A DNA stretch of 64,000 nucleotides, taken from assembly GCA_050248615.1 (NCBI GenBank), contig JBFWSA010000004.1:13775-77774 (forward strand), in the 5' to 3' direction. Source of the DNA: Simkaniaceae bacterium. Lineage in GTDB: Bacteria > Chlamydiota > Chlamydiia > Chlamydiales > Simkaniaceae. Every line of letters starts with the position of its first letter. Within the stretch, counting starts at the first letter, position 1. Both the position numbers and the translations under genes were made by a program. Shown piece by piece: positions 10,170-51,200 of the stretch. The notes under the pieces were generated by a model. That model saw only the letters and a list, made by a program, of their open reading frames with translations, ran no database searches and had not been told where the DNA came from.

Positions 10170-10333
10170 ACGCGAATTGCGGATTAGATCTCTATGGAAA
10201 CGTTCAAATTTTTGAGGAAATTTTTAGAAAAACCTGCGAAGGAGATAGCCAAAGTGCTAGCTTCAAGCAGTTTTTCTTACAAAGATTCCAAAAAGATGGG
10301 TGTTTCTATAGAGATCTAATCCACAATTCGCGT
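10170..10333. mobile_element. 164-bp MITE-like hairpin element with IS982-like 5'-AC ends
   Basis: 32-bp TIR ACGCGAATTGCGGATTAGATCTCTATGGAAAC (2 mismatches) flanked by direct repeat TAACATA at 10163-10169 and 10334-10340. Confidence 0.75.
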
Positions 10334-10354
10334 TAACATAAACTTATTAACTCA

Positions 10355-10420
10355 TATGAACCTATCCAGAGTCATGACGTCCTCGCAAAGCGAGGAGCTT
10401 GATACGATTATAGGCTCTGG
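10355..10420. repeat. Truncated TATGAACCTATCC-type hairpin element
   Basis: TATGAACCTATCCAGAG...CTCTGG with inner TCCTCGC-AAA-GCGAGGA stem; cut off by the IS30 remnant. Confidence 0.55.
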
Positions 10421-10421
10421 A

Positions 10422-10790
10422 GAAAGTAAAGGATGCACTAGTTAAAAAACTGGAGCCCGTCCAAGACTTTATCTTAATGGTAACAGCTGATAACGGAAAA
10501 GAGTTTGCATGTCATCAGGAAGCAAAACGTTGCCTTGAAACAAGTTTTTATTTTGCTAAACCTTATCATTCTTGAGAAAGGGGGTTTAATGAACATACGA
10601 ATGGGTTGGTGCGTCAGTATCTTCCTAAAAAAACAAAGTTTTAATGATGTAACAGACGAAGACATAGAGAAAATTGAGTTTTTGCTTAACAATGGACCCT
10701 GGAAAGTGCTAAACTTTTGGACACTATTAGAGGTTTTTAACGAGTTCAGTAAAAAGAACGTTATTGTCGCACTTCAGAATTGAATTGGCG
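10422..10790 (+). pseudogene. IS30-family transposase C-terminal remnant with right end
   Basis: Across frameshifts and a stop: VTADNGKEF, FAKPYHS*ERG, NEHTNGLVRQYLPK, LNNGPWKVL..EVF, VALQN; ends GTCGCACTTCAGAATTGAATTGGCG. Confidence 0.85.
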
Positions 10791-10796
10791 GGTGCT

Positions 10797-10840
10797 TTGG
10801 CACAGCCGAAAATCCAACTTTTGAAGTTGTTTTGAGTATA
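10797..10840 (-). repeat. ERIC-like terminal motif (half element)
   Basis: CCAACTTTTGAAGTTGTTTTGAGTATA; related copies at 1093, 18034, 25925, 28295, 32996, 48300. Confidence 0.7.
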
Positions 10841-10965
10841 AAACAGCAATAGTTAGACTTATGAAACAAGATAAGAATAGTCATAACTTCTGCTCTGCTA
10901 AATCTTGGTCGAGATTTTTAAATTATTTTGAAAGAAAAATAAATTTCTTATTTAAAAATGATCGG

Positions 10966-48236: not shown

Positions 48237-48299
48237 AGAAAATGAGTATAATCTTCGATTAATTAATTCACAATCCTTGCATCATTATTGCATAAGGTT

Positions 48300-48326
48300 T
48301 ATACTCAAACAAACTTGTTTGAGTAT
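48300..48326. repeat. ERIC-like mini hairpin
   Basis: TATACTCAAACAA-AC-TTGTTTGAGTAT; its end overlaps a candidate ATG at 48325. Confidence 0.75.
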
Positions 48327-49047
48327 GTCACTAATGGCTATTAAAAGATTATTCATTACGATCATAGGGAAGATTCCCTTCAAAAAAATTGCTTTTCAAT
48401 TAGCCATACTTGCCGCTATTTTCATTCCCCTTTCTGCCTATCTTGCTTACAAGAATTCTAGCTTTATTCTCGCTAGGATGATCTCCCATACAACACAAAC
48501 CCCTGTTACCATTCATGCCATTGATTTCCACCAGAATTCTTTTGTTATTCAAAATCTTACGGTTGGGAACCCCCAAAAAGCTTACATTCCTACGGCCTTT
48601 AGAGCGGAACAGGTTAAAGTAGATGCCCCCTATATAGAATTCTTAAAAAAATCCATCACCATCGATCAAATCGAAATGAACAACATCTATATCAATATAG
48701 AGTTCTTTACCGAGGACAAAATAGAAGGGAATTGGCAAGAAATCCTTGAAAATATGGAAGCTGAGTATCACCCCTCCTCTGTCACTAAACGGGGAACACA
48801 TATCAAAAAGCTGATTTTAAATAATATTCAAGTGAACCTCATTCTATCCGATGGCAAAATTCATAGACTGTCACCGATTGAACATCTTGAGTTCGATGAT
48901 GTGACTTCAGAACAAGGGCTTCCTACCAAAGAAATTTCAGAAATTATTGCCCGAAAAATGGTCTATACGATTTTGAAAGAGGATGGACTTAATTTAATCA
49001 TTAAAATCCCCCTCAAAGTCATCAAAACAATTTTACCTTTTTTATAA
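48325..49047 (+). CDS. Hypothetical membrane-anchored protein (possibly AsmA-like)
   Basis: One N-terminal TM then beta-rich IQNLTVGNP...ITIDQIEMNNI; start uncertain. Confidence 0.6.
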   Translation: MSLMAIKRLFITIIGKIPFKKIAFQLAILAAIFIPLSAYLAYKNSSFILARMISHTTQTPVTIHAIDFHQNSFVIQNLTVGNPQKAYIPTAFRAEQVKVDAPYIEFLKKSITIDQIEMNNIYINIEFFTEDKIEGNWQEILENMEAEYHPSSVTKRGTHIKKLILNNIQVNLILSDGKIHRLSPIEHLEFDDVTSEQGLPTKEISEIIARKMVYTILKEDGLNLIIKIPLKVIKTILPFL

Positions 49048-50184
49048 CGCCAAATTTTCTAAAGCCTCTTGATCGAAAGTTGTTAAAAACCTTTCCAATA
49101 GTAAAACCATATTTTCAAAATCACTGCGGTCCAGAATGCCATAATGAGAATGGACATAGCGTGTGGGAATGCCGAGATTTATCACATAAGTCCCACATCC
49201 TGAGCCTTGCAAGCGACAACCATCTTGGCCATAATTAATCAGCTCCGCCTCATACTGAAAAGGAATCTCATAGGTATGAGCCAATTCTGTAAAATATTCC
49301 ACTAAACCATTCGTTGGTAACATACTATTATCATAAACAAAGATAGTAGGCCCCCTTGACAAGGAAGGATAATGTGAAAGATAGTTAGGAAAGTGTAGAG
49401 GGAAATCTTTTGCAATTCCTACTTCAAGATTGACAACAACATCAGGCTGAGTACTTGCAAAAACGGCTTGAGCCCCTTTCATAACAAATTCCTCTTGAAC
49501 CGTTGCAGCAACCATTACTTCGCAGGATAAATCTACATCTTTGAGCTTTTGTAAAGTCGTGATGATAGCAGCAAGGGCAATCCGATCATCAAAGGCTTTT
49601 GCACAGTAGCGATTTGTCCCATTTAATACTTGAAAATCCACATCAGGGGTAATAGATAACCCGGGTCGAATCCCTAGATCTTCAGCTTCTTGTTTTGAAC
49701 TGACACCAATATCTAAAAACATCCTTTTTTGTGAAACTTCTGGAATTTTTGGATAACCAATTGTGATATGAGAAGACTCAATTCCAGTAATCCCTGTGAC
49801 CAACCCTTTAGGTGTCGAAATCACCCATTTCTGCCCCACAATCACAGGATCAATCCACCAACCAATACTATCAAAGTAAATAAACCCTTCTTCAGAAATT
49901 TCCCTAACGATAAAAGCCACCTCATCCATATGTGCCATCAGGAGAACACGCGGTTTCCCCGTCCCTGTCTCCCGAAACCCTATAAGATTCCCCATCTTAT
50001 CCACTTTTAAACCCACCAAAAGGTCTGATAACTGTTCCTTCATAATATTCCGAACAGGGCCTTCAAAACCAGATCCCCCGTGAGCATTCGTTAACATACG
50101 GATGAGCTCAAGAGTTGGATCATTCTCATGAGCAAAAACAACAGTTGATAGTACAAATAAATGTAGTAAGAGCTTTTTAAACAT
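49042..50184 (-). CDS. M42-family metallo-aminopeptidase with apparent signal peptide
   Basis: SGFE, AHMDEV, KAFDDR, TVQEE, IPTRYVHS. Confidence 0.88.
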   Translation of the reverse strand: MFKKLLLHLFVLSTVVFAHENDPTLELIRMLTNAHGGSGFEGPVRNIMKEQLSDLLVGLKVDKMGNLIGFRETGTGKPRVLLMAHMDEVAFIVREISEEGFIYFDSIGWWIDPVIVGQKWVISTPKGLVTGITGIESSHITIGYPKIPEVSQKRMFLDIGVSSKQEAEDLGIRPGLSITPDVDFQVLNGTNRYCAKAFDDRIALAAIITTLQKLKDVDLSCEVMVAATVQEEFVMKGAQAVFASTQPDVVVNLEVGIAKDFPLHFPNYLSHYPSLSRGPTIFVYDNSMLPTNGLVEYFTELAHTYEIPFQYEAELINYGQDGCRLQGSGCGTYVINLGIPTRYVHSHYGILDRSDFENMVLLLERFLTTFDQEALENLAL

Positions 50185-50231
50185 TTTGCCTCCCTATTAC
50201 CTCGGTGTGCTACTTATAGCTAAATATGTAT

Positions 50232-50848
50232 CTATTCGTGGTCTTCTTCTATTTTTACTTCAAGAGCTCTACTCTCTAATTTGAGAAAATTTTCCTTGGA
50301 AGTTACTTTCTTTCCACTTTCAAACTCGAGCTCTTTTCTTGCATCCCCTGCAATCTTCCCACCCATTTTGGCAGCAGCCGAATTTTCACTGAAACCTTGC
50401 GCATCTCGATTAACAGCAATTTCTTTGGTTGCGGCTTTTCGATCCACTAATCGCTATATCCCTTTTCTTTGTAAATAGTCCGGGTTCTTTGAGTTGCAAT
50501 CTCTGGATCTTCAATCTCTTGAATCCGCACCTTAGCTAGCCATCGTTTAAACGGCTCAGCCTTTGGAGAAGGAATAGATTGAATAATACGGAATATTGTT
50601 TCAGTATTCGCCGTATCAGTTTCTCTCATTTTCCCATCGGAAGCTTCTAGTTTCAACTGTACGATTTTTTCGTACAGTTTGGTAAATCCTTCATTTTTAA
50701 TGAGATTTCTCTTTAAGTCAAACCAGTATCTTCTTGCATTTGCACTACCTGTCAATACGCTGACGATATCGATAACTGAAAAATACCATTCTCCATTATG
50801 AAATATACGGCGAATTTGTTTATCTTCAAAAACAGCAATTTTCCCCAA
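50232..50848 (-). pseudogene. BRO-N phage antirepressor-like gene, disrupted
   Basis: EWYFSVID, RIIQSIPSPKAEPFK; GYSD*WIEK nonsense at 50447-50449, then frameshift into AATKEIA..GGKIAGDARKELE. Confidence 0.8.
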
Positions 50849-51037
50849 ACTGTCCTATTTTTCTGGTATTTGCATAAGACCATACCTGCGACTTTAAAGT
50901 GATACGAAGGTATATGGATATTTTATTAAAAGCAAGCGTGACGTTTTCTCTGAAAACTCCTTACTTCTCGCCCTTTCGCAAGCCAAGACTTTGGCTTGCT
51001 TTCTCTCTCAATTTATCGAAGAAAAATGGCGAGGGGG

Positions 51038-51200
51038 CCGCCCCGAGCACTTTTAGATTTCTTTGGGTTTTTTCTTAGCATGCGTTAGATAAGAACTGGA
51101 AGCGTGCAGGCAAGGTGCAAGTCACCTTGTCAAACAATGACAGTTCTTAGATGGCGTATGATAAGGGAAAAAACAAGAAATCTAAAAGTGCTCGGGGCGG
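51038..51200. mobile_element. 163-bp palindromic element whose right arm includes the tRNA-Leu 3' end
   Basis: Perfect 26-bp IR CCGCCCCGAGCACTTTTAGATTTCTT at 51038-51063 and 51175-51200. Confidence 0.8.

Follow-up and report, generated by a model that had tools for sequence, protein, structure and literature searches.

The 64,000-nucleotide stretch of DNA analyzed here (the window) lies within contig C4 of the genome of a Simkaniaceae bacterium (G000; 2.04 Mb in 69 contigs, 96% complete), which encodes CdsZ and GrgA and is therefore chlamydial. Its most conspicuous features are six long hairpin elements, each folding as a single rod (Table 1). All six had been proposed in a first-pass annotation and were found, with the terminal words it gave, at the places it named. 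The size class that it assigned to them (160 to 170 bp) also held, once individual lengths had been corrected to those in Table 1. Elements 2 to 4 begin at G (GAACCTATC), and the T before it belongs to the target duplication, which measures 2 bp in 25 of 27 copies. Element 1 is flanked by a 7-bp target duplication (10163-10169 and 10334-10340). The duplications are imperfect at element 4 (GT/AT flanks), which adjoins the tsaB start codon, and at element 5 (TAA/TAC flanks). These elements belong to a genome-wide class of rods that share one length and carry the ends of several insertion sequence (IS) families.

Table 1. Rod elements, their derivatives, and associated features in the window (MITE, miniature inverted-repeat transposable element)
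Feature	Position	Strand	Description
Element 1	10170..10333	+	164-bp rod MITE, IS982-type ends; purine-loop strand +
TATACTC-family rod, right-hand part	10782..10844		
Element 2	12374..12537	-	164-bp rod MITE, IS5-type GAACCTATCC ends, 2-bp AT duplication; purine-loop strand -
ACCCAAG-ended rod family deletion derivative, 102 bp	12623..12724		Adjoins 33-bp GAACCTATCC-type end at 12590-12622
Element 5's family, lone end	16521..16549		
TAGATAGTGTC (IS5-type) family, lone end	18540..18576		
Element 3	19844..20005	-	162-bp rod MITE, IS5-type ends and core family of element 2, 2-bp AT duplication
GAACCTATCC-family internal-deletion derivative, 38 bp	20705..20742		
Element 4	26013..26176	+	164-bp rod MITE, ends and core as in elements 2 and 3 (IS5-type)
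Element 5	28273..28465		Rod MITE, IS5-type GAGA ends; 193 bp minus 33-bp insert = 160 bp
Nested insert in element 5	28295..28329		35-bp mini-derivative (33 bp net) of commonest family; TATACTC ends, TA duplication
GAACCTATCC-family internal-deletion derivative, 38 bp	35262..35299		
Conserved tail past element 6 far arm	51027..51037		Resembles degenerate repeat of tRNA 3' end (alignment)
Element 6	51038..51200	+	Single-copy 163-bp rod; purine-loop strand +, antisense to tRNA
tRNA-Leu(TAA)	51188..51271	-	Last 13 nt form base of element 6 stem
CTAG-target (IS630-type) family internal-deletion derivative, 51 bp	53326..53376		

We scanned the whole of G000 for inverted repeats (score of at least 14, span up to 700 bp), using a 1-Mb order-4 Markov sequence as a control. 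As the first-pass annotation had anticipated, palindrome lengths showed a peak: 139 of 324 inverted repeats fell at 160 to 179 bp (112 at 160 to 169 bp and 27 at 170 to 179 bp). The control yielded 5 repeats, none of them in this range, and the peak is therefore not due to chance. Repeats of ∼330 and ∼495 bp consist of rods inserted into other rods, forms of 35 to 110 bp are internal deletions, and rods and fragments together occupy 44 kb (2.2% of the genome). The 155 repeats of 140 to 190 bp formed 23 clusters; leaving out clusters 20 (non-rod) and 22 (a nested chimera) gave 21 core families, for which statistics were restricted to rods of 150 to 190 bp. Across all end types, rod length ranged from 158 to 173 bp (median, 164) and the terminal stem from 16 to 46 bp. 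Only 2 of 142 copies lie within long open reading frames (ORFs), and many adjoin stop or start codons; one rod within a 299-codon ORF (C11:8230-8393) is a possible in-gene insertion of the kind seen for the palindromic element RPE. The size peak recurs in another genus (18 of 46 repeats in 360 kb of G035; 10 of 34 in 182 kb of G026), is weak in G001 (1 of 7 in 105 kb), and was not seen in the 45 kb of G029 that were examined (0 of 2). The tip of elements 2 to 4 was present in 9 of 25 other genomes of the bacterial family and in 3 of 275 genomes outside it (one match each); two of these three matches lacked a rod, and the third (G096) was a 172-bp rod. Separately, the IS630-rich genomes G020, G025, and G029 (55, 11, and 12 copies) gave no exact match to this tip, the IS630-poor G026 and G000 gave many, and G006 had 53 tips and 3 IS630 matches; ISs and rods may trade off.

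The hairpins had initially been set apart from IS-derived MITEs, a distinction that did not survive inspection of their ends: five of the six have IS5- or IS982-type ends, for which cognate ISs and family-typical duplications were found in G000 or in relatives. The GAACCTATCC ends of elements 2 to 4 flank a broken transposase gene on contig C55 and intact relatives, the best NCBIfam match of which was IS5; this match fell under the whole-protein cutoff because those genes are split in two frames. The ACGCGAATT ends of element 1 flank an IS982 pseudogene on C11 that shares its first 9 nt with element 1 and has a 7-bp duplication. IS5 elements in G025 provide matches to the ends of element 5 (near-identical) and to the TAGATAGTGTC and GAGGGTG ends; TATAGCT, ATACCA, and CTAGT ends match IS630 elements; and CAGGGCT ends agree at all of 22 nt with those of ISAs1 elements flanked by 10-bp duplications. 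The proposed search for transposases with matching terminal repeats was thus positive for IS5, IS630, IS982, and ISAs1, while the commonest rod family (TATACTC) gave only a loose IS630 match (L029) and element 6 none. Target duplications in G000 track end type (2 bp in 25 of 27 copies, TA in 36 of 39, 6 to 7 bp in 6 of 8, and 3 bp for GAG ends). The elements have the features of type II MITEs (terminal inverted repeats, a length under 500 bp, target duplications, IS-shared ends, and multiple dispersed copies without a transposase gene), and we regard it as almost certain that they are such gene-less mini-transposons.

Because the ends and duplications match IS5, IS630, IS982, and ISAs1 elements, no new mobilizer is needed, and the rods were likely moved by cognate DDE transposases. 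Most cognate ISs in G000 are broken, a fact that, together with the one-strand fold described below, would suit a separate HUH/RAYT-type enzyme or reverse transcriptase that recognizes the rod and moves all families. Such an enzyme is hardly credible, however, since each end type has the target duplication of its IS family and the 96%-complete genome gave no match to RVT_1 (PF00078) or Y1_Tnp (PF01797). Searches of G000 found IS630 as a fragment only, without recognizable ends, and returned no ISAs1 match. We also considered intact parent ISs present as long multicopy repeats and rejected them, there being none among 78 matches of at least 230 bp; most of these were overlaps between contigs, paralogues, or nested rods, and others were broken pieces of IS982 and IS5. 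One intact gene for a 297-aa IS5-like DDE transposase, with terminal repeats and a 9-bp duplication, lies at C9:40929-41819; it is the only unbroken one of five PF01609 matches, and no rod family was found for it. In four relatives, orthologous gaps were empty or held another rod family, at a divergence too high for base-level comparison. One of four runs (X5) yielded a contig without elements 1 and 2, in which 854 other bases take the place of a 2.6-kb block (10167-12749). When plasmids were searched with element 3, the single match (23 bp; E of 0.1) was disregarded.

Interiors were shared across end types. One core occurs on ISAs1 ends and on two kinds of IS5-like ends (76 to 79% identity over ∼90 nt). 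A second is found with IS5 ends and with IS630 ends (68% over 89 nt); in relatives it is joined to other IS630-type ends as well and, in G026, to an IS982-type end. A chimera at C28:23452-23650 has ends of ISAs1 type, an additional left arm of IS5 type, and the core of another family, which is the expected product of nested insertion and recombination. The interiors matched no IS bodies, and we therefore rejected an origin of the cores from IS interiors; cores matched only separate rods beside ISs, and the hairpins that flank the IS982 fragment on C12 and the IS630 at L044 are separate rods of this kind. In two places (C12:37754-38546 and C3:45276-45897; 91% identical), an IS982 fragment carries a rod core just inside its left end, and this composite seems to have moved as a unit. 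CTAG-target rods at L044 (G062 C9) and at G000 C7:41806-42150 stack end to end, flanking IS630s via a common CTAG.

Most pairs among the 21 cores have no sequence link, and a single ancestry of all cores is therefore not established. The convergence in size that had been credited to a shared mechanism is largely common descent and interior swapping; what stands of that proposal is a length and a rod fold common to unrelated ends. An alternative is that ordinary MITEs of independent origin merely agree in size, lengths of 100 to 200 bp and folding being general among bacterial MITEs. Published families do span 103 to 177 bp with long stem-loops (PMC3184786, PMC2229807, PMC2267715), and the lack of pairwise links among most cores is what such a coincidence would give. 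The narrow range of 158 to 173 bp over all end types speaks against it, as do the single core on ends of different IS families, the shared loop positions and polarity, and the absence of matches to IS interiors. Coincidence is largely refuted by the shared cores, and we consider it very improbable.

The rods also bear marks of folding as one strand. Among 29 aligned cores, 91% of cells were paired and 79 double-sided changes were counted, compared to 29 in shuffles (0 of 500 as high) and above all slid controls. Mismatches, counted from an energy-free alignment of the arms, were strongly polar: purine-purine mismatches outnumbered pyrimidine-pyrimidine mismatches on one strand by 194 to 40 across the 21 families (χ2 = 120; 21 degrees of freedom, allowing for strand choice) and by 343 to 45 in 37 rods from relatives. 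Bulges favored the same purine strand (108:30), and the purine loops were mostly tandem G·A (20 tandem 5'GA/3'AG loops, versus 2 tandem AG). This strand was predicted to be the more stable one as DNA in 19 of 21 families. Mirrored private changes (46 observed, ∼0.6 expected) and one copy in which an arm segment is overwritten by the other arm indicate that the arms copy each other, which requires DNA-level fold-back or strong selection. Purine loops were erased in 31 of 661 cells and wobble mismatches in 49 of 299, a gap partly due to transition bias. We conclude that the one-strand fold is very probably under selection. The first-pass annotation had envisaged action on a rod-like single-stranded DNA (ssDNA) or RNA; strand-polar purine loops and covariation do point to a single-stranded structure.

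The geometry of the rods was regular. G·A loops cluster at 8 to 9, 12 to 16, 27 to 29, 38 to 39, and 49 nt from the tip; those more than 20 nt away had a coherence of 0.96 at a period of 10.5 (n = 15), compared to 0.85 in relatives. RATTT words start 30, 41, 51, and 62 nt before the tip. The elements had been suggested to form a chlamydial system, a restriction that fell away once similar rods were found in other phyla. Using an RPE-like tip motif, we retrieved 125 loci from many phyla, Rickettsia included, a set chosen by exact motif. These RPE-like rods have varied IS-like ends and, on the motif-fixed strand, a purine polarity of 524:49 (256:24 in a held-out set). Strict end-finding worked for only 23 of 80 loci, and anchored extension was used, giving ends accurate to a few bases; loci scoring under 30, cut at a contig end, or outside 100 to 175 bp were left out (14 of 80 and 12 of the 45 held-out loci). 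The resulting lengths were stepped: 25 of 66 rods measured 115 to 127 bp, 1 measured 128 to 139 bp, 25 measured 140 to 150 bp, 11 measured 151 to 160 bp, 2 measured 161 to 175 bp, and 2 were shorter. Among 33 held-out rods from the 45 held-out loci, the counts at 115 to 127, 128 to 139, 140 to 150, 151 to 160, and 161 to 175 bp were 14, 1, 11, 1, and 5, and 1 was shorter. The class medians (123 and 145 bp) and the G000 median of 164 bp are separated by steps of ∼21 bp, or about one helical turn in each arm. From 46 RPE-like loci we derived a covariance model (R1), which had no match with an E value of 1 or less in G000, G035, G026, or G022 and two in G001 at E of ∼0.4. The G000 rods are thus linked to RPE-like rods by architecture and not by demonstrated homology.

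Stepped lengths and phased tracts raise the question of whether the duplex itself is selected, as a bent double-stranded spacer of allowed length that helps any transposase pair the ends, with palindromy and covariation as by-products of arm copying. T-tracts at 30, 41, 51, and 62 nt from the tip, the quantized lengths, and the frequency of arm copying fit such a spacer, and a 155-bp Correia element contains an IHF site (PMC2229807). Predicted curvature also exceeded that of block-shuffled controls in 58 partly related sequences modeled with wedge parameters (tract phase, 2.75 versus 2.23 ± 0.15; end-to-end ratio, 0.877 versus 0.913 ± 0.007). This gain is small, however, and a duplex with two-fold symmetry gives no reason for purine mismatches and bulges on one strand along both arms. 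End-to-end phasing would moreover allow steps of 10.5 bp, yet the 128- to 139-bp interval is almost empty. A selected duplex is therefore improbable in our judgment.

A transcript is the other candidate. The elements would still be MITEs, but the transcript of the purine strand would form the rod, and its binding or processing (e.g., by RNase III) would protect transcripts of the host or regulate the element. Pooled counts on the purine strand show more G·T(U) than A·C pairs (73:36 in G000; 141:65 in relatives), the loop spacing fits a period of 11 as well as 10.5, many copies adjoin stop or start codons, and part of the region was present in six RNA runs. The Correia and ERIC elements, moreover, influence mRNA decay (PMC10969869, PMC2229807). 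Orientation argues the other way: across tandem-gene gaps the purine strand showed no bias (sense in 32, antisense in 38), and in element 6 it is antisense to the tRNA operon. GNRA or UNCG apical loops occurred in 0 of 21, 0 of 37, and 0 of 35 rods. No Rfam family reached threshold for the rods; at the gathering score only RNase P and a tRNA were found in the window, with miRNA-hairpin matches below it. We therefore rate an RNA function as unlikely. We favor ssDNA on two grounds: the step that sets the polarity must choose one strand independently of host transcription, and the copying between arms suggests that DNA folds back. With respect to replication, the purine strand lay on the C-rich strand in 83 of 138 G000 copies (83:55; P = 0.02) and in 15 of 20 (15:5) in G035. 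By the usual interpretation of GC skew, the C-rich strand templates the leading strand. The same arrangement has been reported for the bottom strands of attC sites in sedentary integrons (PMC5371416). On balance, we lean toward selection at the level of DNA rather than of RNA or duplex.

We incline slightly toward the view that the elements as a whole are IS-mobilized MITEs with a selected ssDNA hairpin chassis. Their ends would be moved by cognate IS5, IS630, IS982, and ISAs1 transposases. A strand unwound at the replication fork would fold back and bring both ends together, and the resulting rod would present its G·A loops and its terminus, aligned on a single face of the helix, to a protein, either a host factor or the transposase. 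Copies with such geometry would found new insertions or survive better. The hairpin would also allow a polymerase to use one arm as template for the other, and interiors would pass between end types through nested insertion and recombination, so that the chassis outlives any one IS family. It is likely that a previously undescribed single-stranded step takes part in the spread or persistence of such elements.

Several observations weigh against this account. Loop coherence was 0.94 at both 10 and 11, and the pitch cannot part B-DNA from A-RNA. Simple 10.5-bp A-tract phasing from the ends was rejected, since the end-anchored AA/TT period peaks at 11.5 to 12, and the duplex is predicted to be modestly curved. 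Tandem GA occurs mostly in an R-GA-Y context (16 of 24; 32 of 46), which is not known to be the most stable one for tandem GA in DNA, and GNA triloops were absent from the rods examined for apical loops. Families 6 and 8 lack polarity, no more than 13 of 20 families had an excess of G·T over A·C on their purine strand (P = 0.13), and neutral copying between arms can by itself produce covariation. Several copies exist of short derivatives that lack the tip. The replication-strand bias is weak and inconsistent, the purine strand lying on the C-rich strand in 1 of 7 copies (1:6) in G026. RPE-like rods showed no tip-anchored loop phasing (coherence of 0.29; n = 18), and 11 of the 66 measured 151 to 160 bp. 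Some published MITE sizes (155, 157, and 177 bp) also lie off the ladder (PMC3184786). Finally, element 6 retains the geometry yet appears immobile.

Element 6 joins a tRNA gene. Its right-hand 13 nt are the 3' end of tRNA-Leu(TAA), its left arm mirrors them, and as ssDNA it is predicted to fold far more stably than shuffled sequences (z = −11.9; 0 of 200 shuffles as stable). Homologues of 164 bp each lie at the same tRNA end in other genera (G026, G035, and G062, the last adjoining a tRNA 3' fragment); element 6 is partly kept in G022 and G001, and no homologue was found in G029. A DNA search recovered it in 4 of 38 other genomes of the family. The homologues are 68 to 80% identical, as are the neighboring genes (68 to 80%), the G·A loops are invariant, and a change at the tRNA end in G026 is mirrored in the far arm. 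No target duplication could be defined for element 6, and no cognate IS was found. It is either kept by the host or targets this site. In the predicted pre-tRNA fold, the rod would capture the tRNA 3' strand. Element 6 may affect tRNA maturation or mark a site-specific element. By eye, the conserved tail and far arm could pair as an alternative short hairpin, after which the tRNA strand has a run of Ts. Rod fragments also lie within 40 bp of 6 further genes among the 36 tRNA genes of G000 (on C3, C20, C22, C35, C43, and C45).

Elsewhere in the window, the 10167-12749 block appears as a strain-variable island bounded by rods, containing element 1, a remnant, an MFS transporter gene, and element 2. 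The remnant (∼10400-10780), between element 1 and the half rod, is a broken transposase-like sequence that may, by its motifs, be IS30-like; a similar piece lies on C22 near 14500-14800. The RNase P RNA gene occupies 13596-13963.

The interior of a MITE is commonly regarded as residual filler. G000 gathers 21 core families and the cognate ends of four IS families in one genome. The hairpin-chassis account predicts which strand bears the loops, how these are phased, and that length changes by one turn in each arm. Should a protein read the fold, a step common to unrelated transposases would follow, together with a design rule for minimal bacterial transposons; otherwise, the rods still illustrate clearly how hairpins drive the copying of arms and how modules are swapped. 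In the literature searched, which did not extend to the original RPE, ERIC, and YPAL papers or to ISfinder, we found no description of a shared, rod-like, or phased MITE interior or of chlamydial MITEs, and an earlier description may exist elsewhere. The excerpted portions of two reviews take MITE families one by one without mention of a shared interior (PMC10969869, PMC2229807), a shared interior across IS families is likewise unmentioned in the portions of PMC3184786, PMC2229807, PMC2267715, PMC2759123, and PMC11602168 consulted, and the string "Chlamyd" does not occur in PMC2267715 or PMC11602168.

Two known systems resemble the G000 rods in part. attC sites of integrons are imperfect palindromes in which one strand folds better via purine-rich unpaired parts and G·T pairs, shape is kept while sequence varies, and orientation relative to replication matters (PMC5027507, PMC5371416). 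The G000 rods share this strand-selective folding by purine skew and in that sense work like attC, but attC is a tyrosine-recombinase site in cassette arrays, whereas the rods carry IS ends, DDE-type duplications, and no genes. Because of these ends and duplications, membership in attC is unlikely. REP/REPIN sequences with RAYT are, like the rods, nonautonomous, nested, and clustered palindromes; unlike them, G000 has no Y1/RAYT gene that we could find, and its rods end in IS terminal repeats with target duplications.

There is also a likeness in form to RPE, ERIC, and YPAL/RU-2, which are whole-length rods with listed sizes on the ladder (∼127, 105 to 146, and 168 bp, respectively) (PMC3184786, PMC2759123, PMC2267715). 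The origin and folding of such palindromes are presented as an open question in the portions of the reviews consulted. ERIC and YPAL were compared by description; the RPE-like tip-motif rods share purine polarity and varied IS-like ends with G000, and one G000 family has, by eye, tip flanks like those of the RPE-like motif. G000 copies differ from RPE in rarely lying in long ORFs (2 of 142), the covariance model of the RPE-like tip assigned no G000 sequence to that set, and the commonest G000 family had no match in Escherichia coli genomes. More speculatively, many bacterial fold-back MITEs (chlamydial rods, RPE-like rods of several phyla, and perhaps ERIC and YPAL) might be one transposase-independent ssDNA adaptor, built in helical-turn units (∼123, 145, and 165 bp), with phased G·A loops read by a conserved protein, fitting the ends of any DDE IS, and of which hosts may keep an immobile copy, as at tRNA-Leu; we offer this only as a tentative possibility.

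With respect to sequence organization, the rods agree with type II MITEs (RUP/IS630-Spn1, Correia/NEMIS, and QMITE). They share with these elements short, noncoding sequence with IS-shared terminal repeats and target duplications, as well as intergenic location, multiple copies, a long stem-loop, and short deletion forms (PMC10969869, PMC2229807). They differ in that one interior lineage carries the ends of up to three IS families and in that 21 core families have a common length, loop polarity, and loop spacing.

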